From NCBI GenBank assembly GCA_040403075.1, contig JBBALJ010000001.1, positions 18,731 through 82,730 on the forward strand: DNA of 64,000 nt, in the 5' to 3' direction. The DNA is from Bacteroidia bacterium (GTDB lineage: Bacteria > Bacteroidota > Bacteroidia > UKL13-3). Below, piece after piece: positions 5,287-41,576 of this stretch. Below the pieces are notes generated by a model. The model was not told where the DNA came from and ran no database searches. It saw only the letters and a program-made list of their open reading frames with translations. The number at the start of each line of letters is the position of its first letter. Within the stretch, counting starts at the first letter, position 1. Made by a program: the position numbers and the translations under genes.

Positions 5287-6531
5287 ATGAATAATTTACG
5301 AATTTTATCAATTGTATTATTTACAAGCGTTTTAGCAGCTTGCGGTACTGTGCAAAATAAATACCAATTAGAAGATGATGATGCCTATTTTTCAAGAAAA
5401 CAATCTGGCAAACAAGCTATCATTACTCCTGATGTAGATATTAATAAAATCATGCAACAATACCCTTCAAAAGTCAACGAAGGAACCTTTGACAACAGAC
5501 CGACTGATGTAAATCCAAATGCTGCGATGGCTTATGGAAAATACAGAGCAGATACAGACTCTTTGTATAAGAAAAATCCGCAATTAGCCACAAATTACAA
5601 TCCTTACAAAGCTCCTGTATTTGATGAGCGTGAAGAAGCAAGACGTTTAAGAAGATTAAATAATTTATACAATAACAATTACTCAAATTCATATTGGGGA
5701 TATAACAATTACGGCTGGAATAACTATGGATACAGCAGATGGAATAGTTACTCTCCTAGTTGGAGTTTTGGTTTTGGGTTGAGTCCATTTAACAATTTCA
5801 ACTATGGATTTGGATATAACTTAGGCTGGGGTAATAACAATTTCTGCAACCCGTTTAACAATTTTGGATGGGGGAGCTCATACTACAATAATTGGGGTTA
5901 TTGTCCATTTTATGGTTCAAATAACCCTTATTATGGTGGTTATAATCCATATTATGGCTCAAATTACCCATATTATAACCCAGTAATTATTGATAATAAA
6001 CCAAATGCACCCGCACCCATCAATCGCCCAAGGGTTATGAGTGGTTCAGACATACCACCCACAAGCAATGGAGTTGTTGGCGGTGTTAACGCAACACCCA
6101 GACCAGGACAACTATTGGAAAGAGGTTCCGTGCCTGCTACAGATGTAAATACCATGCCATCTCAATCATTTAACAATGGAGGAGCAACTTTAAAAAGGGA
6201 CGAGTCCGGCACCTACCAATATAATCCTCCAGCTAATTACAACAGAGCAACCGGTGCAACAGAAACACCAAATTACAGTAATTATTCTGGATATAGCAGA
6301 GACAATCAACCTAGCGCACCCTCATTTCGTAGTGATAATAATGTAACACCTAGTGAACAAAGGAATAATAACTACCAAAATAATCAACAACAAACCCCTA
6401 CCTATAATAGACAATACCAACAACCTGAAAATAATTTTTCTCGACCAAGTTACAGTACTCCATCATTTTCAGCTCCATCGGCACCAAGAAATGGCGGTGG
6501 AGGAGGCGGAGGTTCAAGACCTAGAATGTAA
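5287..6531 (+). CDS. Lipoprotein with extreme Asn/Tyr/Gly/Trp-rich and Pro/Ser/Asn/Gln-rich low-complexity regions
   Basis: Lipobox-like signal MNNLRILSIVLFTSVLAAC. The central block is NNNYSNSYWGYNNYGWNNYGYSRWNSY...GYNPYYGSNYPYYNP. The C-terminal half is P/S/T/N/Q-rich and ends in GGGGGGGSRPRM. Confidence 0.7.
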   Translation: MNNLRILSIVLFTSVLAACGTVQNKYQLEDDDAYFSRKQSGKQAIITPDVDINKIMQQYPSKVNEGTFDNRPTDVNPNAAMAYGKYRADTDSLYKKNPQLATNYNPYKAPVFDEREEARRLRRLNNLYNNNYSNSYWGYNNYGWNNYGYSRWNSYSPSWSFGFGLSPFNNFNYGFGYNLGWGNNNFCNPFNNFGWGSSYYNNWGYCPFYGSNNPYYGGYNPYYGSNYPYYNPVIIDNKPNAPAPINRPRVMSGSDIPPTSNGVVGGVNATPRPGQLLERGSVPATDVNTMPSQSFNNGGATLKRDESGTYQYNPPANYNRATGATETPNYSNYSGYSRDNQPSAPSFRSDNNVTPSEQRNNNYQNNQQQTPTYNRQYQQPENNFSRPSYSTPSFSAPSAPRNGGGGGGGSRPRM

Positions 6532-6545
6532 AAATTAATAATTAT

Positions 6546-8012
6546 ATGAAAAAGTTAGTAGTAGCAATCACTTTATTAATAGCTACATGGAAGGGCTTCG
6601 CCCAAAATGTAGAAGACATTGTAAGAATATCAAAAACTGATGCAATTGGCTCAGCCAGGGTACTAGGAGCTGGGGGAGCATGGGGTGCAGTAGGTGCAGA
6701 TTTATCTTCAGCATCAATCAACCCAGCAGGTCTTGGTTTTTATAGAAGAAACGAACTTTTAGGTTCGATGGCTGTTACAGCTAATTATGCAGATGCCTCT
6801 TTTTTGGGTAGCCTCAGAAATGATAGTAGAACAAATTTCAACATTCCCAATATTGGTGCTGTTTTTAGTTATGTAAATCAAGAAAGAGGTAAAGATGCCA
6901 AAACGGGTTGGATTAGCGCCTCATTTGCAGTTGGAATGAATCGACTTGCTGATTTCCAGCAAAACACTTACTATTCTGGAGTTAGCAAAAACAATTCCTA
7001 TGGAGATTACATAGCATTGCAAGCATACGGCAAGGATTCCAATAATTTAAATGATATTCAAAATTTGGCATGGAATACATACCTCATTAATAATACGCCC
7101 AATAAAAGTGATAGTTTTGATTCGTGGTTCGGAAGAAATAACGACAAAAACTATTCTGTAAATCAAATAAAATCCACTCAATTAAGAGGAAATATGAATG
7201 AATGGTATTTTGGTATGGGCAGTAATATCAGCAACTTTTTATACCTAGGTGCAAGTGTGGTTCTAAATACCACTAACATAACAACCAATTCAACATTCAC
7301 CGAGGAGGTAAAAACCAAGTCGATATCCTCAAATCCTTATGTCAATAATGTATATACAACATCAGTAAATACAACAGGTTATGGTGTTGGTGGTAGATTT
7401 GGTATTATCATAAGTCCAATTGACTATTTTAGATTTGGTTTATCATATCAAACTCCAATTAGGGTAAATTTAACCGATGTTTACAGTTCATCAAACACAA
7501 CAAATTTCAGCACAAAATCTTATTCAGCCACAACAGGAGATATTAATAGTACTTATCAAATAATTACGCCAGGCAAGTTAACCTTGAGCGGGGTAATAAT
7601 GATACCTCAGCACGGCTTTATTTCAGCTGATTATGAAATGATTGATTATAGAGATGGACAAATTAAATCAACTGAATTTCAGAATTACTTTGATCCAATT
7701 AATGCGAGTGCCAGACAAAATTTAACGCAAGCAAATAATTTAAGAATTGGAGGTGAATATCGTTGGGATAATTATAGGTTCAGAGCTGGGTACAATTTGT
7801 ATAATTCTCCATATTCAGATGACCATAAAAGCATAAAACAACAATCAATATCTGCAGGATTAGGAATGCTATGGGGCAATGGATACTTCATTGATGCAGC
7901 TTGCGTTAGATCTATGAGTACTATATACAATAGTCCATATGATAAAATTAATTATGCTCAAATTGACTTAACAAAATATACATTTATGTTATCGGGTGGA
8001 ATTAGATTCTAG
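6546..8012 (+). CDS. FadL/PorV-like outer-membrane beta-barrel protein
   Basis: Signal peptide MKKLVVAITLLIATWKGFAQ. N-terminal motif SARVLGAGGAWGAVGADLSSASINPAGLGF is typical of FadL/OMPP1/PorV-like barrels. The terminal residue is Phe (LSGGIRF). It starts 15 nt after the upstream lipoprotein gene. Confidence 0.7.
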   Translation: MKKLVVAITLLIATWKGFAQNVEDIVRISKTDAIGSARVLGAGGAWGAVGADLSSASINPAGLGFYRRNELLGSMAVTANYADASFLGSLRNDSRTNFNIPNIGAVFSYVNQERGKDAKTGWISASFAVGMNRLADFQQNTYYSGVSKNNSYGDYIALQAYGKDSNNLNDIQNLAWNTYLINNTPNKSDSFDSWFGRNNDKNYSVNQIKSTQLRGNMNEWYFGMGSNISNFLYLGASVVLNTTNITTNSTFTEEVKTKSISSNPYVNNVYTTSVNTTGYGVGGRFGIIISPIDYFRFGLSYQTPIRVNLTDVYSSSNTTNFSTKSYSATTGDINSTYQIITPGKLTLSGVIMIPQHGFISADYEMIDYRDGQIKSTEFQNYFDPINASARQNLTQANNLRIGGEYRWDNYRFRAGYNLYNSPYSDDHKSIKQQSISAGLGMLWGNGYFIDAACVRSMSTIYNSPYDKINYAQIDLTKYTFMLSGGIRF

Positions 8013-8030
8013 AAATCAAAGAAGATCCAT

Positions 8031-8061
8031 AAAAAAGCCATTCATTTTGAATGGCTTTTTT
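8031..8061. terminator. Bidirectional rho-independent terminator between convergent genes
   Basis: AAAAAAGCCATTCATTTTGAATGGCTTTTTT. The stem is GCCATTC/GAATGGC with a 5-nt loop, an A-run on one side and a T-run on the other. It sits between the stops at 8012 (+) and 8081 (-). Confidence 0.65.
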
Positions 8062-8080
8062 AATTTAATCTCTTTAATGA

Positions 8081-10057
8081 TTAAGATTGATTTGACAGCA
8101 AATTTTCAACAGTAGTTTTTGAAAGCTCAATTTTTTTGTCAAGGCTCTCGTATACTGAATTTTTGCTTTGAAATTCAGGAACAATCTCTTTCATTTTAGC
8201 AACAATTGCCATTTGATTTTGTTTGTTATAAAGTCCCAACAAGTCATTAGTAGAGTTTTGCACTTCCTGAAAATTATACAACCTTACTTTACCAATCATT
8301 ATTTTAGGGTGATGGGTAGGTAATGTATTTTCACCATCATTTAGCAACTCCTCATATATTTTTTCACCCGGACGTAAACCAGTATAAGCTATATTAATAT
8401 CCTTGCCCAATGTTAAACCTGATAGTTTAACCATTTTCTTGGCCAAGTCTATAATTTTAACAGACTTACCCATATCAAACACAAAAATCTCACCTCCTTT
8501 ACCCATATATCCTGCCTCAAGAACTAATTGGCAAGCCTCAGGTATGGTCATAAAATATCTAGTTATTTCTGGATGTGTAACCGTAATGGGTCCACCTTCA
8601 TTTATTTGTTTACGGAACTTTGGTATAACAGAGCCACTTGAGCCTAAAACATTTCCAAAACGAGTTGTAATAAATTTGGTATTTGCTTTTTGATTTAATA
8701 GTAATTCATTATTCAAAGATTGGACATAAATTTCAGCTATACGCTTAGATGCGCCCATCACATTTGTTGGATTAACTGCCTTATCAGTAGAAACCATAAC
8801 AAACTTTTCAACGCCAAAGTCAATTGATAAATCGGCTATATTTTTAGTCCCCCCTACATTTGTCTTAATAGCTTCCGAAGGATTACTTTCCATCAAAGGA
8901 ACATGTTTATAGGCAGCAGCATGATAAACTATCTCTGGTCTGAATTTCTCGAAAATATTTCGCATTCTGTTCTCGTTTCCAATATCAGCCAATATTAATT
9001 CAGTACACCTTAAAAACTCGTTTTTGTGCTTATCCAATAGCTCATGCTCCAAATCGTATAATTTTATTTCCGAGCTATCAATGGCAACCAATTTCTTTGG
9101 CCTAAAATTAAGTATTTGATTAACCAGTTCGCTACCAATTGAACCTGCGGCTCCGGTTACCATAACAACCTTTCCATCTAATTGGTTGCTAATACCCTGC
9201 TTATCCAATTCAATTGTATCACGTTCAATCAAATCTTCTATGTTAACATTTTTAATCTGATTGAAACTCAATTCTCCATTAATCCATTTCTCTACAGGCG
9301 GAACTGTTCGTACATTCACATTAAAGTTTAAGCACTTTTCTATAATTTCTTGTTTTCTATTTTTACTAAGATTGGTAGGTGTTAGGATAAGTGTATCTAA
9401 ATTGAATTTATTAATTACATTTTCAAAATCATTATCAAAATTATATATCTCAATTCCATCAATTGATTTACGAATTTTCTTTGGGTTATCATCAAAAAAA
9501 GCTGCAACCTTCGTATTTATAGCTCTATATTGATCCAATTTCTTTTTAGTTGTAATTCCAGCCTCACCAGCACCAAATATGGCATAGGTAATTTGTTCGC
9601 CTTTTGCAGATTGATAGGATATTTTCAAGAAGGCAACTTTTACAGCCATTCTAAAAGCGGCAAGTAAAAATGCACTTATAATAAAATCGAGAACAACAAT
9701 TGAAAGTGGAATATAGGCAGTTTTGTCTGGGCTAAATGACCTATAAAAGAAATCAATAGTAATTAATGCTATAGAACTTAAAAGAGTGGTATATAATATT
9801 TTGATGCCATCTTGAACACCTGTATGTCTAACTATACCTGAATACAACCTAAAATAGGTCATAAAGAGCGTTTTGACAATAATCACAACCGGTAAAACTC
9901 TGAAAACAGCCTCAACTAATCTTGAATCAAATTTAAAACTATATCTAAGTACAACAGATAAAATAAAGGCTGCTGCACAGATTCCTAAATCAAAAGCAAA
10001 TATTAGCCATCTAGGAATACTATTCGAGTGATTAAATAATAATTTTAAATACTTCAT
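8081..10057 (-). CDS. Membrane-anchored UDP-HexNAc 4,6-dehydratase (CapD/WbpM/PglF family)
   Basis: 658 aa with an N-terminal region of about 4 TM segments. Two Rossmann regions are present (AIFGAGEAG; VMVTGAAGSIGSEL), plus HAAAYKHVPLMESNP and the VSTDKAVNPTNVMGASKR catalytic region. Confidence 0.9.
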   Translation of the reverse strand: MKYLKLLFNHSNSIPRWLIFAFDLGICAAAFILSVVLRYSFKFDSRLVEAVFRVLPVVIIVKTLFMTYFRLYSGIVRHTGVQDGIKILYTTLLSSIALITIDFFYRSFSPDKTAYIPLSIVVLDFIISAFLLAAFRMAVKVAFLKISYQSAKGEQITYAIFGAGEAGITTKKKLDQYRAINTKVAAFFDDNPKKIRKSIDGIEIYNFDNDFENVINKFNLDTLILTPTNLSKNRKQEIIEKCLNFNVNVRTVPPVEKWINGELSFNQIKNVNIEDLIERDTIELDKQGISNQLDGKVVMVTGAAGSIGSELVNQILNFRPKKLVAIDSSEIKLYDLEHELLDKHKNEFLRCTELILADIGNENRMRNIFEKFRPEIVYHAAAYKHVPLMESNPSEAIKTNVGGTKNIADLSIDFGVEKFVMVSTDKAVNPTNVMGASKRIAEIYVQSLNNELLLNQKANTKFITTRFGNVLGSSGSVIPKFRKQINEGGPITVTHPEITRYFMTIPEACQLVLEAGYMGKGGEIFVFDMGKSVKIIDLAKKMVKLSGLTLGKDINIAYTGLRPGEKIYEELLNDGENTLPTHHPKIMIGKVRLYNFQEVQNSTNDLLGLYNKQNQMAIVAKMKEIVPEFQSKNSVYESLDKKIELSKTTVENLLSNQS

Positions 10058-10161
10058 AATTAAACTATGTCTGCAAAATTAATTACTTATGTATGAATTT
10101 TTCTTTTCACAATAAAATTTTACATTACAAATATAGTATTCTCTTATTCTATTTGACAATT

Positions 10162-11832
10162 TTAGTGTTTTATTAGCCGAAATCCTTGTTTTAAAGAACT
10201 TCCAATAGGAAAAATTTGTAAATGAAAATTCTCAAACAAAATTTTCTCATAACTAGAAGACATACATGGTAAATTTGTGTTCCAACAATATCTATTTTGG
10301 GTCGGATGGTAATAGAACTTATTATTCACAAGAATGCTATCAATACTTTCAAAATAATATTGATTGGACGGAAAAACAAGTCTTTCGGAAGTTAACTTAT
10401 CTATCTGTCCTAATTCTTTACTTGTATTAGTAGATAAAACATTTATACCAACCAAACCAATAAAAAACATGATGGAATAAATTCCTATCAAAAAGTTAGT
10501 TACCCAATTATTATTTTTGATGTTTTGTTTATTGAAAGCATTATAAATAAGTAGTGCTATAAAAAAAATGAATACGGGCAGGATAAATCTATATTGAGGA
10601 GCAAACAATAACCAAATAATAAAATTTAAGAAACCGAAGATTAGCATTATTGATTCGCTAATTGTTATTGTTTTTCGAATTCCCTCTCGAATAAATAAAA
10701 TCAATGAAATTAAGACTGTACCAAAGATGAATTTATTTATTAAGCCCTTTGCACCTCCCCTACTTAGTAACATTAATAATTGACTAATTATATCCTTCTG
10801 GTATTCATTTTCAACCAAAAAGGGCTTGTATTCATCAGAATAGGACCAAGATTTAATGCCATGTATAAAATAATCAAGAAGAGGTTCAGGCGTTTTCCAT
10901 TCTAATTGATTTACTGAAAAAGCTTTTATTGGATATAATGGATAGCCCGTTTGAAAAATATTTTTAGAAATATAAAGAGTGAAAATTACTAAAATAACTA
11001 AAAGTAATAAAGGACTTTCTAGTACTTTTTTTCGCTCGATAAAAAAACAATATCCGCCTAAACATAATAATAAAATAGCTGAGATTTTTATGGTGATAAC
11101 AAAGCAAGCAATTAAGATTATTCCTTTAAAATTCTCTTTACAAATAAAAAAATCCAATCCAATGGCTGTAAATACAATCACAGGAAAGTCAGGATTGGGT
11201 GCAGAAAGAAATGGCACTGATAAAAAAAGTACCAAAGAATATTGGGTTATAGAAAATAGTGTGATTGTTTTATTTGCAATTCTTGACACAATAAGAAAGG
11301 TATATATTAAAAAAACAAAACCATTCAAGTCATTGGTGTAAACGGAATCTGAAAAGATATATACCGATTGAAGAATATGCCATGCAGAGGATAGCCCTAA
11401 AGAAACATGGAGGTTTGATATACCATGCACAAATCCGTACTCTCTAACCCATTTAATGGTTTGTGTATAATACAAACCATCATCATTTATTTTAGATGAA
11501 GCGGAAGAATATATAGCTAAAACTGTAGATGCTAATAAAAGGAAAAAGGATTGTTTAAGAATCAGCTTTTCCTTAAGTGATTGAAATATTTTTTTATAAT
11601 AGGGAAATTCAAGAGCAATAAGAGAAATATTCAAGAAACAGAGTCCATAAAGGACATTAGAATAAATTGGCAAAAAAAATGCCAATGCGGTCAAAACACT
11701 TGAGTTGATTATCAAACCAACAATTACATTTTGTATTAGGTTTTGATCATTCTTAATCTGAATATTGATTGCTCTGCCCAATGGATAGTTGGTAAAAAAA
11801 ATCAATAGCCAATTAAACAATACCACTAACAT
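10162..11832 (-). CDS. Large polytopic membrane protein, GT-C / O-antigen-polymerase-like (function unassigned)
   Basis: 556 aa and hydrophobic throughout, with many TM segments by eye. It has an acidic loop motif KINDDGLYYTQTIKW after the early TM segments and a roughly 90-aa Cys-containing soluble C-terminal tail. Its start lies 5 nt after the stop of the XrtF-partner gene. Confidence 0.5.
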   Translation of the reverse strand: MLVVLFNWLLIFFTNYPLGRAINIQIKNDQNLIQNVIVGLIINSSVLTALAFFLPIYSNVLYGLCFLNISLIALEFPYYKKIFQSLKEKLILKQSFFLLLASTVLAIYSSASSKINDDGLYYTQTIKWVREYGFVHGISNLHVSLGLSSAWHILQSVYIFSDSVYTNDLNGFVFLIYTFLIVSRIANKTITLFSITQYSLVLFLSVPFLSAPNPDFPVIVFTAIGLDFFICKENFKGIILIACFVITIKISAILLLCLGGYCFFIERKKVLESPLLLLVILVIFTLYISKNIFQTGYPLYPIKAFSVNQLEWKTPEPLLDYFIHGIKSWSYSDEYKPFLVENEYQKDIISQLLMLLSRGGAKGLINKFIFGTVLISLILFIREGIRKTITISESIMLIFGFLNFIIWLLFAPQYRFILPVFIFFIALLIYNAFNKQNIKNNNWVTNFLIGIYSIMFFIGLVGINVLSTNTSKELGQIDKLTSERLVFPSNQYYFESIDSILVNNKFYYHPTQNRYCWNTNLPCMSSSYEKILFENFHLQIFPIGSSLKQGFRLIKH

Positions 11833-11836
11833 AAAA

Positions 11837-12289
11837 CTACGAATTCTGGGATTTAAAAAAGTAGGAAACTCCTAATACGAAAGGTACTATTGGATTCAAT
11901 AATATTATATTTAACTTTTGGTAGAGTTGCCTAAGAATTATTGGTTCTGAAAATGCAAAGTAGAAATAAAATGGAAAGAAAATAATTAGTACAAGCGTCT
12001 GTATCAGGATTACAGCTTTAGAAAATTTGATATCCAAAAATAACATATGGATAATTATGACGGCTGAAACATTATTTATAATGTACCTGAGCAATTTGTT
12101 TATTGCAAAATTTACTTCATTGTGATGGCTATGATTGAATTCGTAAAACCCATTCAGATTAATACAAAAACATAATACATCAAAATTCTGAAACAGAAAG
12201 GCTACGGCCAAACCTATTGAAGCTAGTGTGCCTAATGAAAATCTTAAGGAATTATTTAGTAGCATCCTCTTTAAAATTTGATGCACCAT
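11837..12289 (-). CDS. Exosortase F system-associated 4-TM membrane protein (TIGR04127-like)
   Basis: 150 aa with four hydrophobic segments. It overlaps the 3' end of the XrtF-like gene by 38 nt (14 nt if the second ATG at 12265 is used). The segment LLRYIINNVSAVIIIHMLFLD matches my recollection of this family. Assigned mainly from its position next to XrtF. Confidence 0.6.
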   Translation of the reverse strand: MVHQILKRMLLNNSLRFSLGTLASIGLAVAFLFQNFDVLCFCINLNGFYEFNHSHHNEVNFAINKLLRYIINNVSAVIIIHMLFLDIKFSKAVILIQTLVLIIFFPFYFYFAFSEPIILRQLYQKLNIILLNPIVPFVLGVSYFFKSQNS

Positions 12290-12785
12290 AATTATTTACC
12301 CAAAAAATAAATAATAGAAATACCAGTGAATAAATAAGTGCAGTAAAGGCATACTCATGGAGAAAAGAAAACCATTCGTGATGATTCAAGGCCACATAAA
12401 ATAAGGTGGAAACACGCATTACATTTAATAAAAAAACACCCAATAGTCCAATGGATAAAAATAGAACTTTTGATTTTATTGCTCCTTTAAATGATAAGAT
12501 GGATGCAAAAAAAGTAATCATGACACTTACTCCATTGCAACCTTCACTTACTGTAATATAATTTACCTTGTTTAAGTAAAACAATACTCGTGGGTGTAAA
12601 TCTGAGTATATCAGCGAAACATCATAACCAATTGAAATCAATATTCTTTGAGAAACGATAGCAACTAAATTTGATATCCCATCAATTTGATTACCCAAAT
12701 AATTTATCCAAAGTAGATAAAGTAGGTTTAAGAAAAGGTACAATCCTACAAATTTGGTGGCAAAAACTATAAGTTTCTTTTGCAT
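12252..12785 (-). CDS. xrtF: Exosortase family protein, XrtF-like (minimal exosortase)
   Basis: 177 aa and polytopic. The ordered Cys/Arg/His signature of exosortases/archaeosortases is present: VSEGCNGVSVM, LLNVMRVSTL, FLHEYAF. Size and pairing with a small partner gene fit the Flavobacteriia XrtF type. Confidence 0.75.
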   Translation of the reverse strand: MQKKLIVFATKFVGLYLFLNLLYLLWINYLGNQIDGISNLVAIVSQRILISIGYDVSLIYSDLHPRVLFYLNKVNYITVSEGCNGVSVMITFFASILSFKGAIKSKVLFLSIGLLGVFLLNVMRVSTLFYVALNHHEWFSFLHEYAFTALIYSLVFLLFIFWVNNYGASNFKEDATK

Positions 12786-14553: not shown

Positions 14554-15069
14554 TTAATACAATAAAATTGGCACATTCTTAAAATAAAAATCCACTCCAA
14601 TATTAATATTAATAAGTTTTTCATAATTAACTCTTGAATCGGGGTAACCAATATGACTGCTAAGAAAAAAACCAAGCCTACTAGTAAATGGTTTAATTAA
14701 TTTTATATTCATTCCAAACTGGTTAATTTTTTTTCCATCGTCTTTAGGTTGTACCTGCAATAAACTTAATCCAATTTGACTACAAAGATTTTTATTCAAT
14801 ATTCTATTTTTTTGATAACCTATTGAAAAAAAAGAAGAATATTTTCTAGTTTCACCTGGTTCAATAAAAACATCAAGATATACTTTATCATAAAATTTCA
14901 TTCCTAGGTTGATGAATGGAATTGTTGGGTAACCTGCACTAAGACCAATATTTATTCGTTGACGCCAAACTTCAAATTGATTGATTGATGAGGTATCGGC
15001 AGACTGTGCTTTTAACTTAATCGAAATTGAGCAAAGTGCGAAAATAAAACTTAAAAAAAATAATTTCAA
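14554..15069 (-). CDS. Small secreted protein, probable 8-strand-size outer-membrane beta-barrel
   Basis: 171 aa. Signal peptide MKLFFLSFIFALCSISIKLKAQ. Alternating hydrophobic strand-like pattern with aromatic girdle residues, ending ...FKNVPILLY. It sits between the WbpB-like and WbpD-like genes. Confidence 0.5.
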   Translation of the reverse strand: MKLFFLSFIFALCSISIKLKAQSADTSSINQFEVWRQRINIGLSAGYPTIPFINLGMKFYDKVYLDVFIEPGETRKYSSFFSIGYQKNRILNKNLCSQIGLSLLQVQPKDDGKKINQFGMNIKLIKPFTSRLGFFLSSHIGYPDSRVNYEKLININIGVDFYFKNVPILLY

Positions 15070-16110: not shown

Positions 16111-17247
16111 CTATTTTTGATTTAAGACTTCAAGAATTATAGAAACTACAAGCTCCAAATCGGAGGTTGAAAGATTAGATCCTGAAGGCAAACAAAGACC
16201 ATTATCAAAAAGTTTGGCCGAGGTTCCATCACCATAAAATGGATACTTTTCGAATATGGGTTGCAAGTGCATTGGTTTCCACAATGGTCGGGACTCAATA
16301 TTCTTTTTATCTAAAGCTAACCTGATATCTTCACGCGTCACTCCATTGGTTTCGCTTGGATTAACTATTATACAAGTCAACCATCTGTTACTAAAAGAGC
16401 CTTCAGATTCATTATGAAAACTGACTCCCTTTATGTTTGACAATTTGGATTTATAAAACTCAAAATTTGATCTTCTTTGCGCAACCCTATCATTTAATAC
16501 AGTCATTTGGCCACGGCCAATTCCGGCACAAACATTACTCATTCTATAATTATATCCTATATGTGAATGTTGATAATGTGGAGCATTATCCCTTGCTTGT
16601 GTTGCTAGAAAACGTGCCTTATTAATATGAGCCTCATTGTTTGAAATCAAGGCTCCACCACCAGAAGTGGTAATTATTTTATTTCCATTAAATGACAATA
16701 CACCCAATTCTCCAAATGTACCACAAGCTTGTCCATTTAATGTGGATCCTAAACCTTCAGCTGCATCTTCAATTATTGGAATTTCATATTCATTAGCAAT
16801 GGCTACTATTTCATCCATCTTTGCTGGCATTCCATAGAGATGAACTGGTATTATTGCTTTTGGTTTCTTGCCATTCTTAATTCTATCTTCGATAGCTAAG
16901 CGAAGATGTTTTGGGCACATATTCCAAGTGTCTTCTTCCGAATCAATAAAAATAGGAATAGCTCCTTGATAAGCTATTGGATTCGCAGAAGCAGAGAATG
17001 TGAAACTTTGACACAATACTTCATCACCAGCAACCACACCCAACATTATTAAAGCCAAATGAATAGCAGATGTACCTGAACTTAAAGCAGCAGCGTATCC
17101 AGATTTTGTATATGTTACTAAATCTTTTTCAAAACCATCTACATGTGGACCTAGAGGGGCAATCCAATTCGTATCGAAAGCTACTTTTACATTTTCAAAT
17201 TCTTTACCACACATATGTGGCGATGAAAGCCAAATTTTATTGTTCAT
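16111..17247 (-). CDS. DegT-family PLP aminotransferase, PglE/EpsN-like (4-aminotransferase for 4-keto-6-deoxy-HexNAc)
   Basis: 378 aa. IWLSSPHMCGKEFENVKVAFDTNWIAPLGPHVDGFE, SGTSAIHLAL and SFNGNKIITTSGGG (PLP lysine region). Confidence 0.85.
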   Translation of the reverse strand: MNNKIWLSSPHMCGKEFENVKVAFDTNWIAPLGPHVDGFEKDLVTYTKSGYAAALSSGTSAIHLALIMLGVVAGDEVLCQSFTFSASANPIAYQGAIPIFIDSEEDTWNMCPKHLRLAIEDRIKNGKKPKAIIPVHLYGMPAKMDEIVAIANEYEIPIIEDAAEGLGSTLNGQACGTFGELGVLSFNGNKIITTSGGGALISNNEAHINKARFLATQARDNAPHYQHSHIGYNYRMSNVCAGIGRGQMTVLNDRVAQRRSNFEFYKSKLSNIKGVSFHNESEGSFSNRWLTCIIVNPSETNGVTREDIRLALDKKNIESRPLWKPMHLQPIFEKYPFYGDGTSAKLFDNGLCLPSGSNLSTSDLELVVSIILEVLNQK

Positions 17248-17250
17248 TGA

Positions 17251-17763
17251 TTATTTTTGTTTTGATATAGTTTTAAATTTATCGGATAAACTTTTATTGA
17301 AAATGAAAATCAGGAATGGCATTGAAGGGAAAAACAACAAAAAGTTGTAAACGTGCGAAGCACGAGTCATAATATTTGTCCCAATCCATATCATGATGTT
17401 ATCGTCACTTAAACAAAATAATTTTCCTATGTGTTTTAGGAAAAAAATTAAAATCAATGCAGTAAGCAGCAATTTTAAACTAGAATCCCCATTAAGGAAT
17501 AAAGATATTCTGCACTGGATTAGTAAGCAGATTAAAAAAACATGGAAATTTAAACTGAATATAAAATAATTGACTTTTGTTTTCAAAACATCAAACTGGA
17601 ATAATACCTCATTTCCATTTTTTTTAAAGTCTGACTTTTCTCTAATAAAAGCCAAATTGTTGTCTATAAAATCAAATTTGTAAACATAGCCAAGATAATT
17701 TACTAATGCATAAAGCAACACCAATATTATAATAAATAGTTTATTTTTCGGAGTCATTTTCAT
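17251..17763 (-). CDS. Small 4-TM membrane protein, partner of the second exosortase-like gene
   Basis: 170 aa with four hydrophobic segments and a loop of about 35 aa after TM1. This is the same architecture as the XrtF partner at 11837..12289. 23-nt overlap with the upstream exosortase-like ORF. Confidence 0.5.
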   Translation of the reverse strand: MKMTPKNKLFIIILVLLYALVNYLGYVYKFDFIDNNLAFIREKSDFKKNGNEVLFQFDVLKTKVNYFIFSLNFHVFLICLLIQCRISLFLNGDSSLKLLLTALILIFFLKHIGKLFCLSDDNIMIWIGTNIMTRASHVYNFLLFFPSMPFLIFIFNKSLSDKFKTISKQK

Positions 17764-18316
17764 TTGAAGGAGCTTGAATTATTGTCCATCTATGCCAAAG
17801 CCATATAATATATCCATATACTATAAACATAAAGGTATAATGATGGTGAAAATCTGCATATTCTCTACTAAACATTGATATCCATGCAATTATGAATATT
17901 CTAATGTTATTGAGAAGGAAAATACTTAAAAGCCCAAATATAAGAAACTCGAAAAATCGTTTTCTGCCCCCAAAGGCTATCAAAAAACCAAAAAACATGG
18001 CAAATAGTTCTAAACCATTGCAAGCTGTAGCAATTCCTATAATTGGCTTACCATTTACTAAAATATATTGCTTTGTACGTATTGCTTTATCTTCTCCTTC
18101 AATATTTCGGTATTTAGTTACAAAATTATCCGACAATCTCACATCATAACCCATCCATACAAACACTTGAGCTGTTATTTTAGCCTCAATAAGCGTAATA
18201 GGATCATTTATCTCTTCCTCTTTAAATACTACTTTGTATAAAAGAGTCCAAATCAACCAAATTGCGATGGCTTTTAATAGAAAAAAAAATAGAGGATGTT
18301 TAATATTTAGTAACAT
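17741..18316 (-). CDS. Divergent minimal exosortase/archaeosortase-family protein
   Basis: 191 aa and polytopic. Ordered signature IGIATACNGLELF (Cys), LLNNIRIFII (Arg), DFHHHYTF (His), with spacing like the XrtF-like ORF at 12252..12785. Confidence 0.65.
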   Translation of the reverse strand: MLLNIKHPLFFFLLKAIAIWLIWTLLYKVVFKEEEINDPITLIEAKITAQVFVWMGYDVRLSDNFVTKYRNIEGEDKAIRTKQYILVNGKPIIGIATACNGLELFAMFFGFLIAFGGRKRFFEFLIFGLLSIFLLNNIRIFIIAWISMFSREYADFHHHYTFMFIVYGYIIWLWHRWTIIQAPSNENDSEK

Positions 18317-18322
18317 ATAATT

Positions 18323-18916
18323 TTATATTTTTTCTTTAGCAGGAACTCCTAAACATGTTTTGCCGTCATTAATATCCTTTGTCACAACTGCACCTGCGCC
18401 TACTGTGCACCATTTGCCAATTTTGATGTTTTGTAACACCACTGCTCCACTGCCGATAAAACTCCCTTCACCAACATGCACATTACCTGAAAGATGAACT
18501 CCTGACATAATTGATACATAATCTTCGATAATCGTATCATGTCCAATAGTACTATTTGAATTTATGATAACATGGTTACCTATTTTAATATCAACGGATA
18601 TTACAACTCCTTTTGAAATAATATTTCCAACGCCAATTATATTGCTTTTATGAAAACTCAATTTATGGTGTAAAACATTCACAAAATTTAATGATTCATT
18701 TAGTGAGATTTTCTTTCTAGTTTTAGAATCAGCTATTGCAATTACGCAACTTACTTCATTTCCAATGGTATTAATAACTGGCTTATCATGCAACCTATTT
18801 AATGTTTTATAATCATCAATAAAACCAATGACATTATTATACATTGAATCTTCTATAAGCCAAAGTGTTTCTTTGCCCATGCCACCTGCACCATATATCC
18901 ATAATGGTTCTTGCAT
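18323..18916 (-). CDS. NeuD/PglD-family sugar N-acetyltransferase
   Basis: 197 aa. N-terminal Rossmann-like IYGAGGMGKE followed by hexapeptide repeats (IGNHVIINSNSTIGHDTIIEDYVSIMSGVHLSGNVHVGEGSFIGSGAVV). Confidence 0.85.
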   Translation of the reverse strand: MQEPLWIYGAGGMGKETLWLIEDSMYNNVIGFIDDYKTLNRLHDKPVINTIGNEVSCVIAIADSKTRKKISLNESLNFVNVLHHKLSFHKSNIIGVGNIISKGVVISVDIKIGNHVIINSNSTIGHDTIIEDYVSIMSGVHLSGNVHVGEGSFIGSGAVVLQNIKIGKWCTVGAGAVVTKDINDGKTCLGVPAKEKI

Positions 18917-18921
18917 TTTAT

Positions 18922-19980
18922 TTATTTTAAAAGTTCACTCTCCTTCATCAAAATTGGCAGCGAATCAACATCTCTTAGGAATATTAAATCTTTTTCGAAT
19001 TCGTACATTTTATAGCTTTTGTCAAAGTTCAAATCCTCATCAAGTAATCTTATGGTATCAGAAGCAAAATTGGCTCCACCAGCTGCAAAACACTGGGTGA
19101 AGGCAACATGTCTAACATTTATTTCCGTAATATATGGTTTACCGTTTTCATCTTCTTTGAAGTCAACTGTATAAAATCCATGTTTAGTAGATTTGCTATT
19201 TTCAAATAAAAATTCTAGAGAATTTATAGCCAATTTAACCAATTCGGGTTCATTAATCAACCTACCAAATGATGTATTTCCAGTGATACCTGAAGGTGCC
19301 ACTTTTGACATAATGTAATTAACCCTTTCGCCACAAGCTGATCTAATTATGTTTCCTTCGAAATATAATAATTTACACGCCAAATTACGACCAGAAAGAA
19401 ACTTACTAGCTAAAAAGGTTTTAACATTTGGATTTATTTGAATCCAGTTTTGAAGTGATTCCATTGAATCAATCCTAAGTGAGCCCAATCCACTAGTTCC
19501 GCTGCTACTTCTTACCCAAAAATCACTTCCAAGCTTTTCAAAAACACCTCCAAGATTGGTTTCATTTCGACTAAATTCAACTGAGGGAGGAACAACACCC
19601 AAAGGATTTAACAATTCTGTCATTTGCGCCTTATCCACTAAAAGTTCAGCCATCTTTGATGATGGGAGCAAAGCTTTACAGGGCAATTCACCTTTTTCAC
19701 TCTTTTTACTCCATTCCATCACTTCCAATTCTGGCAAAATAACGGCATAATCAATATTATTCTCTAAAACAATTTTGCTTATCACTTCCCAATAATTTGC
19801 ATCAGTACATCTTGGTATTACATAAGATTTACTGAATAACTCGCTCTGATATAGTCCAATTGAAAGTGGATTAATATCAGTGGCAATAAGTTCAAATCTT
19901 TTGTAAAAGCTGTACTTTTTGAGTGCAATTGCAAAACTTCTTGGTGTAGGTCCACCTACTCCTGTAATTAATATTTTCAT
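18922..19980 (-). CDS. ATP-grasp domain ligase (carbamoyl-phosphate-synthase-like fold)
   Basis: The track ORF extends to 20022, but the ATG at 19978-19980 (MKILITGVGGPTPRS...) removes the overlap with the upstream gene. ATP-grasp-like core with YITEINVRH near the C-terminus. Confidence 0.65.
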   Translation of the reverse strand: MKILITGVGGPTPRSFAIALKKYSFYKRFELIATDINPLSIGLYQSELFSKSYVIPRCTDANYWEVISKIVLENNIDYAVILPELEVMEWSKKSEKGELPCKALLPSSKMAELLVDKAQMTELLNPLGVVPPSVEFSRNETNLGGVFEKLGSDFWVRSSSGTSGLGSLRIDSMESLQNWIQINPNVKTFLASKFLSGRNLACKLLYFEGNIIRSACGERVNYIMSKVAPSGITGNTSFGRLINEPELVKLAINSLEFLFENSKSTKHGFYTVDFKEDENGKPYITEINVRHVAFTQCFAAGGANFASDTIRLLDEDLNFDKSYKMYEFEKDLIFLRDVDSLPILMKESELLK

Positions 19981-19984
19981 ATTC

Positions 19985-20590
19985 TTAATTCTTTCCGTTA
20001 AATGGTAACATTGGCCTATCAATACTTTGATTTACTCCCTCAGACATAATAACCTTTAAAAAGGTAAGCCACAGTATTTTAATATCAAGCCACATACTAA
20101 GATTTTCAACATAATACACATCCAGATTAAATTTTTCTGTCCAACTAATGCTATTACGCCCGTTAACTTGGGCCCAACCTGTAATACCAGGTTTTGCAAG
20201 ATGTCGTTTTTTTTGTTCTTCAGAGTATAAAGGTATGTATTTAAATAAAAGTGGGCGAGGGCCAACCAAGCTCATATCACCCTTTAATACATTAATGAGT
20301 TGAGGCAGTTCATCAATTGAGGTTTTTCTAATAAATCGGCCTATGGGGGTTAAACGAATATTATCGGGCATCAGCATACCATTTTTATCTTTATTATTGT
20401 TCATAGAGCGAAATTTAATCACTTTGAATGGTCGCTCTTTAAAACCTGGTCTTTCCTGTAGGAAAAATGGTTCTCCTTTATTAATAAAAGATAGAATAAT
20501 CGTAAAAAGAAAAAGAATTGGACTTACAATTAGCAAAATTACAATACTAAAAAATAAGTCAATTAATCGTTTCAAAAATATTCTATACAT
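19985..20590 (-). CDS. Initiating undecaprenyl-phosphate sugar-phosphate transferase (small PglC/WecP-type bacterial sugar transferase)
   Basis: 201 aa. One N-terminal TM, then FLQERPGFKERPFKVIKFRSM, DELPQLINVLKGDMSLVGPRP and KPGITGWAQVNGR. Confidence 0.9.
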   Translation of the reverse strand: MYRIFLKRLIDLFFSIVILLIVSPILFLFTIILSFINKGEPFFLQERPGFKERPFKVIKFRSMNNNKDKNGMLMPDNIRLTPIGRFIRKTSIDELPQLINVLKGDMSLVGPRPLLFKYIPLYSEEQKKRHLAKPGITGWAQVNGRNSISWTEKFNLDVYYVENLSMWLDIKILWLTFLKVIMSEGVNQSIDRPMLPFNGKN

Positions 20591-20591
20591 C

Positions 20592-21593
20592 TTATCTTAA
20601 TAAGTTCTTTAAACCTCGATTAATAGGTAACTGCCATAATAATTTGCACCAATCGTGATTTCCTTCAATCAACCCTGGTCCCTTTTCTGTAATTACAACA
20701 TCCCATCCTATTGAGCGATTTGAGGTATTATATAACGCGGCCTTTTTAACCAATTCAATTGTTTCATTCCACATTGGCACCTTAAATCCAGTGATTCTTA
20801 CACCTGTGACAGGATGAATTTCCGAAGCCTCTTTTGTAATATCACTATAGACTGCTGCCCTAATTGCAATACCCGATTTTTCATCCAATTCTACAGCCAT
20901 GTTGCCCGCTGCCAAATTATCAACTGGAGAATTCACTGAAATTCGCAACCTACAACCCAAAATTTCAACTTGGTTATCATTTGTCAATTGAGTAAAAATC
21001 CTAACTGTATTTACTGCAGAAGGTGATAATCTGTTAATGTCTGGATGTTGGATGATAAACTCTTCAACCAAATCAAATCCATCATTTTCTATTTCGTTTA
21101 AAAATGTTTTATCAGATATATTTTTAGTTTCTATGATTTTAACCCCTTTACCACACTTACCATCTGCAGTTTTTAAAACTAATTTCCCAGATGGGCTATC
21201 CAACAATTGTTTTAATAATTCAGGATTAGACATTAACTCAACCAAATCTGCGACCTTATGAACAAAAAAAGGATGATATGCTTTGTAAAACTTAGTTTTG
21301 TCATCCAATACATCTCTATTTCCTTTGGGATTCATTCGAAGTTGATATTCGTACATATGTCCTGTGCCAGCCCATTCCAACTTCTGTAATTTTGTTTTCT
21401 CAAAGAATCTAAATTGAAAATATTCTAAAATACTTATGTTATACTTTAAACTGTTAAAGATTATTTTAAACAATAAAGAAATTCTATTATCTCCGCTGAA
21501 ACTTATCAAATAATTAGAAAATTTCATAAAGAGCACTTTATCTAAATTGTTAAAGTAATAGCCCAAATATATTATACGATTTAAATATCTCAT
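20592..21593 (-). CDS. Sugar-transfer-associated ATP-grasp protein (ATPgrasp_ST-like)
   Basis: 333 aa. It lies immediately upstream of the phosphoglycosyltransferase gene (1-nt gap). Features include KLVLKTADGKCGKGV, IEGNHDW and an N-terminal helical region typical of this family as I recall it. Confidence 0.6.
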   Translation of the reverse strand: MRYLNRIIYLGYYFNNLDKVLFMKFSNYLISFSGDNRISLLFKIIFNSLKYNISILEYFQFRFFEKTKLQKLEWAGTGHMYEYQLRMNPKGNRDVLDDKTKFYKAYHPFFVHKVADLVELMSNPELLKQLLDSPSGKLVLKTADGKCGKGVKIIETKNISDKTFLNEIENDGFDLVEEFIIQHPDINRLSPSAVNTVRIFTQLTNDNQVEILGCRLRISVNSPVDNLAAGNMAVELDEKSGIAIRAAVYSDITKEASEIHPVTGVRITGFKVPMWNETIELVKKAALYNTSNRSIGWDVVITEKGPGLIEGNHDWCKLLWQLPINRGLKNLLR

Positions 21594-23913: not shown

Positions 23914-24693
23914 TTACTGTTGAGGAAAATTAAGCCTTATCAAATCATCCTTCACATCTGGATTTGGATAGTTAATTAATACAGCTTTGTAAACCCCTTT
24001 GAATACAAACAAACTTCCAGCAGATGCCCCAATTATGCCAAATTTATTAATCAATTTTCCAATATCATCTATAGAGCCAGCACCACCTATAACAGTTAGT
24101 GGCAAAGTAATTTCTTTTCTAATTTTTTCAACTAAATCAAAGTCAAAACCTTTCATTACTCCATCTTGGTCGATAGAATTAATTACTATTTCACCTGCTC
24201 CCATTTCTTGAAATAATCGTGCCATCTCAAAAGGATTTTTTCCTGTTCCTTTTTTACCATTATGGGTATATATTTCATATCCACCCAACAATTTCTTCTT
24301 AACATCCAAAACCACAACAGCACTCTGAGTGCCAACTCTTTCGGCAATCTTACTAACCAATTCAGGATTTTCTATGGCTGCAGAACTTAATGCAACTTTT
24401 TCAACACCAAGCGAGAAAATTCTTTGTGCTTGCTCTACATTTTTAATCCCTCCACCATAGCATAATGGCATTCTGCATTCAGAAGCTAATTTTTCGATTA
24501 TTTGATAGTCTGGCTCCGTATTATTAACGCTAGCGTCTATATCAAGAACCATTAATTCATCAGATTCTTTCTCATTAAATATCCTTACTGCATTAATAGG
24601 ATCTCCAACATACTTATGGTTCTTAAAATTTACTGTTTTTACCAATCCTTTTTCATGAATCAGTAAACAGGGTATAATTCGAGGTCTTAACAT
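23914..24693 (-). CDS. wbuZ: HisF-like cyclase subunit of acetamidino-sugar synthesis (WbuZ/AglZ-HisF2 type)
   Basis: 259 aa. MLRPRIIPCLLI...GLVKTV.F, CYGGGI, GAGEIVINSIDQDG and IGGAGS are (beta/alpha)8 HisF motifs. Confidence 0.85.
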   Translation of the reverse strand: MLRPRIIPCLLIHEKGLVKTVNFKNHKYVGDPINAVRIFNEKESDELMVLDIDASVNNTEPDYQIIEKLASECRMPLCYGGGIKNVEQAQRIFSLGVEKVALSSAAIENPELVSKIAERVGTQSAVVVLDVKKKLLGGYEIYTHNGKKGTGKNPFEMARLFQEMGAGEIVINSIDQDGVMKGFDFDLVEKIRKEITLPLTVIGGAGSIDDIGKLINKFGIIGASAGSLFVFKGVYKAVLINYPNPDVKDDLIRLNFPQQ

Positions 24694-36976: not shown

Positions 36977-38017
36977 TTATTCTGCAAGATGACCAATCGA
37001 CATATCGCCTAAAACTTCTCGTTTGATAAAAGGCAATTTTAAGAGTAATTTTTTCATCCCTTCTACACCTTGCTGGGTGGTATTATGCGAATGATAATCC
37101 TCTACTTTAGAAATATCCTGCTCTCCTTCAGAGAAATATTGGGCATAATTTAAATCCCTATTATCAGCGGGAATTCTGTAAAAATCGCCCATATCTTCCG
37201 CTTTCATCATCTCTTCTCTGGTGCATAAAGTCTCATATAATTTTTCACCATGTCTGGTACCAATAATCTTGATTTCATTATCAACATTACATAATTCTTT
37301 CATGGCTTGTGCAAGGTCTCGAATAGTTCCCGCAGGTGCTTTATTCACAAATAAATCACCTGAATTACCATGTTCAAAAGCAAACAAAACTAGTTCTACG
37401 GCCTCTTCTAATGACATCAGGAAACGGGTCATATTGGGATCAGTTATAGTAAGTGGCTCACCTTTTTTTATCTGCTTTAAAAACAAGGGTATAACAGAAC
37501 CTCTTGAAGCCATAACATTACCATATCGCGTTAAACAAACCGTAGTTTCTGATAAATTTCTGGCAGCAGCAATGGCTACTTTTTCCATAAGGGCTTTCGA
37601 TATTCCCATGGCATTAATGGGATATGCAGCTTTATCAGTGCTTAAGCATATTACTTTCTTTACTTTGTTAGCTGCAGCAGCATCAATTACATTTTGTGTA
37701 CCTAAAACATTTGTTTTAGTTGCTTCTAATGGAAAAAATTCACAAGATGGAACTTGTTTTAAAGCAGCAGCATGAAATACATAATCGACATCACGCATAG
37801 CGCGTTCTATACTTGAATAGTCTCTTACATCACCAATATAATATTTTATCTTATCATTTTTTAATTGGTTGCGCATGTCATCTTGTTTTTTTTCATCACG
37901 TGAAAAAATTCGAATTTCGCTAAAGTAGTCAGTAGGTAAAAAATGATTTAAAACCGCATTGCCAAATGATCCTGTACCTCCAGTTATTAGTAAAGTTTTT
38001 CTAGTAATATTGCTCAT
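36977..38017 (-). CDS. fnlA: UDP-GlcNAc 4,6-dehydratase/5-epimerase (CapE/FnlA/WbjB type)
   Basis: 346 aa. LLITGGTGSFGNAV, IRIFSRDEKKQ, FHAAALKQVPSCEFFP and LSTDKAAYPINAMGISKA. Confidence 0.9.
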   Translation of the reverse strand: MSNITRKTLLITGGTGSFGNAVLNHFLPTDYFSEIRIFSRDEKKQDDMRNQLKNDKIKYYIGDVRDYSSIERAMRDVDYVFHAAALKQVPSCEFFPLEATKTNVLGTQNVIDAAAANKVKKVICLSTDKAAYPINAMGISKALMEKVAIAAARNLSETTVCLTRYGNVMASRGSVIPLFLKQIKKGEPLTITDPNMTRFLMSLEEAVELVLFAFEHGNSGDLFVNKAPAGTIRDLAQAMKELCNVDNEIKIIGTRHGEKLYETLCTREEMMKAEDMGDFYRIPADNRDLNYAQYFSEGEQDISKVEDYHSHNTTQQGVEGMKKLLLKLPFIKREVLGDMSIGHLAE

Positions 38018-38022
38018 ACTTT

Positions 38023-41572: not shown

Positions 41573-41576
41573 TTAT

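Follow-up and report, generated by a model that had tools for sequence, protein, structure and literature searches.

A conserved gene unit joining an XrtF-family exosortase to a membrane protein of predicted GT-C fold in a Bacteroidota polysaccharide operon

The window analysed here—64,000 nucleotides (nt) of contig JBBALJ010000001.1 from a member of the Bacteroidia—contains a Wzx/Wzy/Wza/Wzc polysaccharide operon whose distal end carries three tightly packed minus-strand open reading frames (ORFs). They encode a divergent exosortase of the XrtF family, its small membrane partner, and a 556-residue membrane protein of the LIC_10190/DUF8201 family with a predicted glycosyltransferase C (GT-C) fold. 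The three recur in the same order in other genomes and form a conserved, probably co-transcribed unit. We read this trio as an inner-membrane module for a late step in surface-glycan assembly on the periplasmic face of the membrane, and give that reading a probability of roughly one half.

12252..12785, minus strand: divergent XrtF-family exosortase, 177 residues, with Cys83/Arg124/His143; TIGR04128 110.4 bits (cut-off 90)
11837..12289, minus strand: XrtF-associated small membrane protein, 150 residues, about four transmembrane helices; divergent TIGR04127 homologue
10162..11832, minus strand: LIC_10190/DUF8201 membrane protein, 556 residues, about 14 transmembrane helices; NF047510 263.7 bits (cut-off 100)

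A sequence-only reading of the same DNA had described these ORFs, their positions and the motifs quoted below, all of which were found as described; that they are not chance ORFs is confirmed by conserved homologues of each and by the recurrence of the arrangement in other genomes. The 38-nt overlap it reported between the exosortase and 150-residue ORFs holds when counted from the first ATG of the latter; with translation from Met9, a residue that never varies in the clade and with which 5 of 15 homologues begin, it would shrink to 14 nt. The spacing to the 556-residue ORF, given as 5 nt, is 4 nt. From 21593 down to 10162, no two neighbouring genes are more than 30 nt apart, and some overlap, two of them by 38 and 23 nt, the former being the largest overlap.

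The three membrane proteins

The 177-residue protein carries the motifs VSEGCNGVSVM (residues 79–89), LLNVMRVSTL (119–128) and FLHEYAF (141–147). An alignment of 50 family members shows no variation at C83, N84, N121 or R124 and at least 90% conservation of H143, and all five residues are retained in 14/14 exosortases compared. Exosortases and archaeosortases, which are inferred to be Cys/Arg/His proteases and may be transpeptidases, are considered to have Cys, Arg and His as their catalytic triad (bioRxiv 10.1101/2023.06.07.544157). The score on the XrtF model bears out the identity proposed by the sequence-only reading, although it is marginal against the 200–233 bits of canonical members; on the XrtX model the protein reaches 106.4 bits, below the cut-off of 170. 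An exhaustive search of 1.84 billion representatives returned only the protein's own 50% cluster below 1e-30, and the next relatives beyond that cluster are at most 44% identical. By sequence, the protein is a fringe member of XrtF. A search by sequence found no solved structure of the exosortase family.

XrtF had been presented as a class of the Flavobacteriia; most relatives retrieved here are instead Cytophagales, and the closest relatives of the window are uncultured Bacteroidota metagenome-assembled genomes. The statement that XrtF has neither function nor sorting signal stands for its targets, which are still unassigned, but not for its function: Flavobacterium johnsoniae mutants deleted for xrtF (Fjoh_1448) or for the partner gene (Fjoh_1449) no longer form biofilms or zorbs and colonise surfaces less well, showing the same biofilm- and zorb-loss phenotype as porU and porZ mutants and a polysaccharide-cluster DegT mutant (PMC10936215).

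The 150-residue protein had been taken for a TIGR04127-type partner. It fails the cut-off of that model (13.3 bits, E 0.067, against 35), but divergent homology is found: a BLASTP search with the protein matched more than 35 XrtF-adjacent partners, and hhalign comparison of the profile of its clade with 40 partners gave a probability of 99.0 (E 6.9e-18, 136 columns). Since all 40 of those partners match TIGR04127, the protein is identified, on this profile–profile comparison as sole demonstration, as a divergent homologue of the XrtF-associated protein. Its C terminus (11837..11935) consists of LLNP, then 12 uncharged residues, and then a basic tail; partners of all four clades end likewise in [HR][RK]xx[ILV][NQ]P, 12–19 uncharged residues, and a short basic tail. 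A tripartite C-terminal layout has been described for exosortase and archaeosortase substrates (bioRxiv 10.1101/2023.06.07.544157; PMC11980579), and the partner's ending resembles these sorting signals; as a hypothesis, the partner is the only conserved candidate for an XrtF substrate that was seen.

This resemblance admits a different account of XrtF, namely that it is not a protease on other proteins but serves the partner alone, which would be either its one dedicated substrate or a regulatory subunit that resembles a substrate, and would be cleaved at the NP motif before the last helix. Besides the signal-like ending in all four clades, the partner is the only constant companion of XrtF, lying beside it in 50/50 canonical and 59/65 Cytophagales-type loci (sets described below), and the two deletions in F. 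johnsoniae share one phenotype (PMC10936215). We nevertheless judge the account unlikely: any polytopic protein that ends in a helix and a cytoplasmic tail looks alike, the partner has neither the signal peptide nor the large exported domain typical of sorted proteins, and the small ORF beside a second exosortase in the window has no NP motif.

The NF047510 match of the third protein spans residues 2–418, and PF26626 (DUF8201) is precomputed for an identical protein and for all 109 homologues; no functional literature on the family was found. The acidic KINDDGLYY segment, noted in the sequence-only reading, occupies residues 114–122, and the C-terminal domain (462–556) holds two Cys. An AlphaFold2 model built on 64 homologues (pLDDT 91.4, pTM 0.93) was compared with the PDB by Foldseek, and its geometrically coherent matches are GT-C glycosyltransferases only: human ALG9 at a probability of 1.0 (TM-score 0.34), EmbA/EmbB at 0.99 (0.36), ArnT at 0.57 (0.31), and AglB at 0.30 (0.23). 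A second model, of a 25%-identical homologue from Flavobacterium granuli that lies in another genomic context (pLDDT 92.4), has 22 top matches, all of them GT-C enzymes (EmbA/B/C, ALG3, ALG9, PglB, Pmt4, STT3, ArnT, and AglB). Taken together, the two models match GT-C structures at probabilities of up to 1.0, with TM-scores of 0.31–0.38 across roughly 390–430 columns, and their non-GT-C matches stay below a probability of 0.25 at TM-scores of about 0.1. A GT-C fold of the 556-residue protein is thus supported by modelling at the level of fold, not of family.

Topology was predicted from the model helices and the positive-inside rule. Lys and Arg number 11 in 48 residues on one face and 5 in 82 on the other, a distribution that places three large loops in the periplasm: the NDDGLYY loop (110–168), the 296–359 loop, and the C-terminal domain with its Cys pair. 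The NDDGLYY loop is nearly invariant, with D117 at least 90% conserved. A periplasmic acidic loop and a periplasmic C-terminal domain, as predicted here, are what would be expected of a GT-C enzyme.

A second polymerase, a ligase, or a GT-C transferase had been offered as roles for this protein, and the two models favour the last. That it should nonetheless be functionally Wzy- or WaaL-like is very improbable. Its size, its many membrane passes, its extensive periplasmic loops, and the place of its gene at the end of a Wzy-dependent operon would suit such a role, and membrane-protein fold matches at TM-scores below 0.4 are not decisive; however, no Wzy, WaaL or SEDS structure lies among the top 50 matches of either model, where GT-C enzymes of six families are present, and neither Wzy_C nor EpsG of Pfam matches the protein. 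An EpsG-like Wzy is, moreover, already encoded in the window at 38023..39267, as the sequence-only reading had said (EpsG 54.9 bits, cut-off 30.1), and distant members of the DUF8201 family are found in non-polysaccharide contexts, next to genes for an ABC ATPase and DUF2400. A match to an unrelated transporter family, also entertained there, did not emerge, channels and transporters remaining below a probability of 0.2 at TM-scores of about 0.1.

Conservation of the unit and its amino-sugar neighbourhood

About 13 DUF8201 loci and 130 XrtF loci were sampled. In 7/7 other loci whose DUF8201 protein is at least 38% identical to that of the window, the gene is preceded by an exosortase (158–195 residues) and a small ORF (134–152 residues), in that order; identities are 75% in L008, 47% in L170, 44% in the P0033 locus, 42% in L005, 40% in L006, 39% in L088, and 38% in L089. 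At 34% identity or below, the trio is found in 0/5 loci. Conservation of the unit extends across exosortases that have themselves diverged: between the window clade and the L005 clade they share just ~30% identity, and L005, L006, and L088 have exosortases that do not reach the XrtF cut-off (79–85 bits).

The five loci without a trio comprise Flavobacterium and Mesonia orthologues lying between an ABC ATPase and DUF2400; the remainder stand alone. In Flavobacterium granuli and Mesonia (L002/L003 7307..10467, L004 7338..10479), the ABC-transporter ATPase, DUF8201, and DUF2400 genes form a tight conserved triplet, which hints that this branch of the family has a role of its own, probably in the core envelope.

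As the sequence-only reading had described, the trio of the window has a WbpE-like aminotransferase gene on one side and a PglF-like dehydratase gene on the other. The genes concerned, together with the two further Wbp-like genes, are as follows.

8081..10057, minus strand: PglF/CapD-like membrane-anchored 4,6-dehydratase; Polysacc_synt_2 413 bits
12797..13945, minus strand: WbpE-like DegT/DnrJ/EryC1 sugar aminotransferase, 11 nt upstream of XrtF; PF01041 369 bits
13942..14523, minus strand: WbpD-like hexapeptide-repeat N-acetyltransferase, kept in the module of other genomes; Hexapep 71 bits
15085..16101, minus strand: WbpB-like GFO/IDH/MocA oxidoreductase; PF01408 90 bits, PF02894 69.6 bits

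WbpD, WbpE, and WbpB are enzymes of the UDP-GlcNAc(3NAc)A pathway (PMC7468200); the WbpB-like oxidoreductase of the window also shows weak similarity to UDP-GlcNAc 3-dehydrogenase. A hexapeptide transferase and a DegT aminotransferase lie directly 5′ of the trio in 6/7 loci, with DegT immediately before the exosortase in L008, the P0033 locus, L088, and L089, and also in L005 and L006 past a small Uma2 insert. A GFO/IDH/MocA oxidoreductase is found 5′ of the trio in 5/7 (L008, L005, L006, the P0033 locus, and L088). The Wbp context is therefore frequent but not obligatory, since L170—the closest independent relative, with 54% identity in XrtF and 42% in the partner—does without it, and the conserved core is the three-gene unit. 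Downstream of the trio, L005-type loci have a small GT2 gene, DUF218, and an MsbA/PglK-like ABC exporter, which by analogy could be the gene set for loading a sugar onto polyprenyl phosphate, flipping it, and transferring it. One further locus, L171, was considered as a truncated trio and rejected, its 136-residue ORF being an unrelated secreted protein. In several genomes, small genes for a 23S_rRNA_IVP (four-helix-bundle) protein and for a Uma2-family endonuclease are inserted in the Wbp/exosortase module, between otherwise syntenic biosynthetic genes (L005 3357..3737 and 6477..7064; L006 4660..5040 and 6436..7023).

How far XrtF in general keeps company with glycan genes was assessed with two narrower alignments, one XrtF subgroup each, as the 50-sequence alignment was too diverse for a genome scan. 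With the 'EGCNG...HKY' subgroup, a scan of species-representative genomes gave 80 loci, mostly of Cytophagales, 65 of them usable; with the 'EGCNA...HD' subgroup, a metagenome scan gave 50 loci of the canonical XrtF clade.

The Cytophagales loci share a gene order that runs from a PglC-like Bac_transf gene through one or two PglD/NeuD-like acetyltransferases, XrtF, its partner, and a DegT aminotransferase to a ~1,500-residue signal-peptide protein with a type IX secretion system (T9SS) type A sorting domain, and ends in a PglF-like dehydratase (for example, L021 2622..20243 and L027 12160..16944). Across the XrtF loci, the NeuD/PglD-family cluster (c1) is immediately 5′ of XrtF in 73, the PglC-type cluster (c4) is present in 62, and the PglF-like dehydratase (c6) is conserved 3′ of XrtF in 45. 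A PorG-like outer-membrane barrel lies on the opposite strand of these cassettes (L009–L087), and GNAT, CE4 deacetylase, and Wzy-like genes lie upstream. The CE4 deacetylase (c13) shows only generic similarity to VimE-type enzymes, and the GNAT gene (c15) was rejected as a VimA/FemAB-type enzyme, having no NCBIfam match. In 63/65 Cytophagales-type loci a glycan gene is found within three genes of XrtF, the XrtF pair having PglD-like and PglE-like genes on its two sides. The cassette suggests a link of XrtF to type IX secretion or surface anchoring.

Members of the canonical clade score 200–233 bits on TIGR04128, with a partner at 153 bits on TIGR04127, and have other neighbours. On one side lie a divergent GAF protein, purH, mreB, mreC, a 168-residue ORF, PBP2, and a probable rodA; on the other, a 137-residue ORF, a TonB-dependent receptor, an HMA protein, and groEL/groES (examples are L093, L118, and L121, from the set L090–L169). 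The glycan context of the trio had been called unusually direct: the link itself stands, but it is not unusual, being the norm in the Cytophagales-type clade and found in 3/50 canonical loci. XrtF homologues beside non-glycan genes, which the same reading had named as a sign of accidental local synteny, are found in the canonical clade and, for the upstream neighbours, at the L170 trio; adjacency of the three genes to one another is nevertheless conserved. The XrtF–glycan link is thus strong and recurrent, but clade-specific.

A proposed late surface-glycan step and its alternatives

The donors of GT-C enzymes are linked to polyprenyl phosphate, and the transfer takes place on the extracytoplasmic face. 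Exosortases and archaeosortases are inferred to be cysteine proteases, and may be transpeptidases; the signal they recognise is tripartite and lies at the C terminus. From family identity, fold, topology, conservation of the trio and its linkage to amino-sugar genes, we infer a donor, an acceptor, and a cleavage by XrtF as follows. The donor of the DUF8201 protein would be a sugar or glycan linked to polyprenyl phosphate, to be passed to an acceptor on the periplasmic face, and the glycan acted on may contain the Wbp-type 2,3-diamino-2,3-dideoxy uronic sugar made by the genes upstream. XrtF, with the 150-residue protein as its putatively obligatory four-helix partner, would perform a cysteine-dependent cleavage or transpeptidation coupled to the amino-sugar glycolipid. 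The deletion data from F. johnsoniae fit this assignment of the trio to a late glycan step.

A number of points weigh against it. The proteins of the trio are known here from sequences and models, and the best Foldseek E-values for the 556-residue protein are 3e-3 to 5e-3 at TM-scores below 0.4; among 64 family members Pfam found PMT_2 in one (1/64, E 0.011) and no other GT-C family, and a PDB profile search by sequence gave no match. Scans for sigma-70 promoters (66 found against 74 expected) and terminators (6 against 5.3) returned chance-level counts, so that co-transcription, though probable, is deduced from gene packing. No PEP-CTERM-like secreted protein was found among 83 ORFs of the window and L008, the local region searched, where the scan returned just two polytopic transporters. 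Finally, 47/50 canonical pairs have no glycan-type gene nearby and the L170 trio has radical-SAM and unknown non-glycan genes upstream, which means that XrtF function cannot strictly need a neighbouring glycan pathway.

The last of these points leads to an explanation by co-location without coupling, in which the XrtF pair, alone or together with DUF8201, works independently in the envelope and was merely captured in the polysaccharide operons of some lineages. The housekeeping neighbourhoods of the canonical pairs and the setting of the L170 trio are as it would predict, and the 3′ neighbours of the trio differ too, being PglF-like in the window and GT2, DUF218, and ABC genes in L005-type loci. 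Against this stand the independent recruitment of XrtF beside the aminotransferase and acetyltransferase of both a Pgl-like pathway (Cytophagales) and a Wbp-like one (here), over dozens of species; the gaps of 11 nt or less, or overlaps, between the genes; and the predicted GT-C fold of the third gene product, itself a sign of glycan chemistry. We regard mere capture as fairly unlikely.

A further possibility is that the 556-residue protein follows the logic of PglB/PglL, that is, acts as an oligosaccharyltransferase (OST) that moves a complete undecaprenyl-pyrophosphate-linked glycan, built on a reducing sugar of di-N-acetylbacillosamine type from the PglC/D/E/F-like enzymes of the operon, to proteins, with XrtF processing the glycoproteins. 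PglB, STT3, and AglB are among its structural matches, the operon encodes PglC-, PglD-, PglE-, and PglF-like proteins, and a giant T9SS cargo gene lies inside the Cytophagales XrtF cassette. Emb and ALG9, however, outscore the OST matches, DUF8201 does not occur in the 78 Cytophagales cassettes that carry the cargo gene, and no candidate acceptor protein was found within the window, all of which make an OST improbable.

The late-glycan reading can be set against several known systems. The canonical F. johnsoniae pair Fjoh_1448/Fjoh_1449 (TIGR04128/TIGR04127) likewise combines, in the Bacteroidota, an exosortase of ~180 residues bearing Cys, Arg, and His with a ~145-residue partner whose gene overlaps its 3′ end; unlike canonical pairs, that of the window belongs to a three-gene unit with DUF8201 in a glycan operon and does not lie beside purH or mreBCD. 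The occurrence of exosortases in exopolysaccharide loci was the founding observation of the family. As with XrtA/EpsH and PEP-CTERM in Proteobacteria and others, the exosortase here lies inside an exopolysaccharide locus with Wza/Wzc-type export genes, but it has only half the length of XrtA and weak scores on EpsH models, comes with a small partner of its own, and is accompanied by no PEP-CTERM-like substrate among the ORFs scanned.

With GT-C enzymes (EmbA/B/C, ALG9/ALG3, ArnT, PglB/STT3/AglB, and PMT), the DUF8201 protein shares, in its predicted structure, a polytopic fold whose large loops and C-terminal domain lie in the periplasm, and the conserved acidic motif of its first such loop is a candidate for the catalytic acid; it differs in having no sequence-level membership of any of these families and in its ~14 transmembrane helices, four of them before the acidic loop. 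The order of L005-type loci recalls ArnC/ArnT and GtrA/GtrB/GtrC, with genes for a small GT2 and an ABC exporter resembling lipid flippases downstream of the one for the GT-C-fold protein; the role of the GT2 is putative and drawn by analogy, and in the window the GT2/ABC set does not adjoin the trio. We know of no three-component periplasmic glycosylation system that includes an exosortase.

In Porphyromonas gingivalis and Tannerella forsythia, a diamino uronic sugar made by WbpB/E/D serves as the amine-bearing linking sugar to which the PorU sortase ligates T9SS cargo (PMC7468200, PMC13086638). WbpB/E/D-type enzymes lie by the trio, F. johnsoniae xrtF mutants phenocopy porU and porZ mutants (PMC10936215), and the Cytophagales XrtF cassettes carry T9SS cargo and PorG-like genes. 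PorU itself, unlike XrtF, is associated with the outer membrane and unrelated to exosortases; no VimA/FemAB-type match was found, and no T9SS gene was identified among the window ORFs scanned. Veith et al. have already speculated that an exosortase conjugates proteins to an amino-acid-modified sugar of Wbp type (PMC7468200).

A bolder form of the late-glycan reading, which we hold to be decidedly unlikely, would make XrtF-type exosortases transpeptidases of the inner membrane. As nucleophile they would use the amine, free or carrying an amino acid, of a lipid-linked sugar produced by the flanking Wbp/Pgl-type enzymes; a polypeptide C terminus—perhaps the partner's, perhaps that of a surface protein related to T9SS—would thereby be joined covalently to the glycolipid, with DUF8201 installing or moving the sugar. 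If true, this would be an inner-membrane counterpart of the attachment of proteins to anionic lipopolysaccharide (A-LPS) by PorU, and would supply both a substrate and a chemistry for the orphan XrtF class.

XrtF, the partner family, and LIC_10190/DUF8201 are already catalogued. As far as the searchable literature shows, four things appear to be new: the conserved XrtF–partner–DUF8201 unit; the GT-C fold predicted for DUF8201; the insertion of XrtF pairs at Pgl- or Wbp-like amino-sugar steps, with T9SS cargo and PorG-like neighbours in Cytophagales; and the presence of two exosortase systems in one operon, described below. XrtF occurs widely in Bacteroidota, and F. johnsoniae needs it to form biofilms and to colonise surfaces; the trio makes the question of its function testable and ties a divergent XrtF pair to the previously uncharacterised LIC_10190/DUF8201 family. 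As XrtF pairs have repeatedly been recruited to the aminotransferase/acetyltransferase step of two amino-sugar pathways, the findings direct experiments to amino-sugar glycolipids and the anchoring of surface proteins and not to hunts for PEP-CTERM-like proteins. The late-glycan reading, if true, would link exosortases to the principle of anchoring through glycans that type IX secretion follows.

A second exosortase pair and the remaining operon

A second exosortase pair, absent from the account of the sequence-only reading, lies about 5 kb upstream of the first in the same operon, with amino-sugar genes on either side.

16111..17247, minus strand: LegC/PglE-like aminotransferase, after the second exosortase pair (cluster c3); TIGR04181 386 bits (cut-off 420)
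17251..17763, minus strand: small membrane ORF of 170 residues, overlapping the second exosortase by 23 nt; no family
17741..18316, minus strand: second exosortase-family paralogue, 191 residues, XrtX-like; triad intact, below every subfamily cut-off
18323..18916, minus strand: NeuD/PglD-family N-acetyltransferase, before the second exosortase pair; TIGR03570 192 bits (cut-off 160.8)
19985..20590, minus strand: PglC-type small phosphoglycosyl transferase (Bac_transf); TIGR03025 258.8 bits in the C-terminal catalytic domain

The 191-residue paralogue (pair at 17251..18316) is 25% identical to the 177-residue XrtF. It reaches 118.1 bits on XrtX (NF046081; cut-off 170) and 54.4 on XrtF (cut-off 90), and exceeds the threshold of 23 for the exosortase/archaeosortase signature with 35.6. 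The 170-residue ORF was rejected as a homologue of the XrtF partner, with hhalign probabilities of 4.3% and 0.2%, and does not match NF046082, the XrtX-associated partner; it is a positional analogue, conserved in L008 and L037. Lying downstream of the PglC-type transferase, between the PglD/NeuD-type acetyltransferase and the LegC/PglE-type aminotransferase, the second pair occupies the exact slot that XrtF and its partner hold in Cytophagales, an arrangement that L008 and L037 share. The operon of the window therefore carries two exosortase systems, each by the aminotransferase and acetyltransferase of a different amino-sugar branch.

The other features of the operon and its end are these.

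8030..8062, no strand assigned: hairpin with a 15-bp stem, between the convergent operon end and a FadL/BamG-like gene
14554..15069, minus strand: 171-residue protein with a signal peptide and a barrel-like C terminus, inside the Wbp block; no family match

The hairpin is likely to be a bidirectional terminator. The PglF-like dehydratase is the last gene of the operon and is set apart from the trio by a gap of 104 nt (10058..10161); two TAnnTTTG matches fall within this gap, the motif being at chance frequency regionally (15 against 12.2 +/- 3.3). An Rfam search of the window gave no match. The 171-residue protein belongs to an exact cluster conserved across several metagenomes; it was considered as a relative of the PorG-like neighbour of the Cytophagales cassettes and set aside, as no similarity was found.

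Two ATP-grasp-type ligase-like genes, at 18922..20022 and 20592..21593 (minus strand), flank the PglC-like gene. The types represented are carbamoyl-phosphate-synthase-like/PylC-like and RimK-related glutamate-ligase-like; such enzymes could attach amino acids to sugars, and a PylC-like gene is also found upstream of the trio in L006. At 23914..24693 (minus strand) lies a gene for an acetamidino-modification protein of the AglZ/HisF2 family (384 bits, cut-off 310; WbuZ-like too), and the operon probably also makes an acetamidino-modified sugar.

Beyond the operon, on the plus strand (5287..8012), a 414-residue protein without a family is followed by a 488-residue outer-membrane barrel with weak FadL/BamG-like matches; this pair converges on the operon end, and the same pair follows the operon in L008. 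The G+C content of 10001..12000, the trio region, is 0.279, the second lowest in the window, most of the operon lying at 0.31–0.35, and GC skew is reversed there; the Wzy/Wzx region (38001..42000) behaves likewise. Low G+C and reversed skew are typical of genes for polytopic membrane proteins; alternatively, they could reflect separate acquisition.

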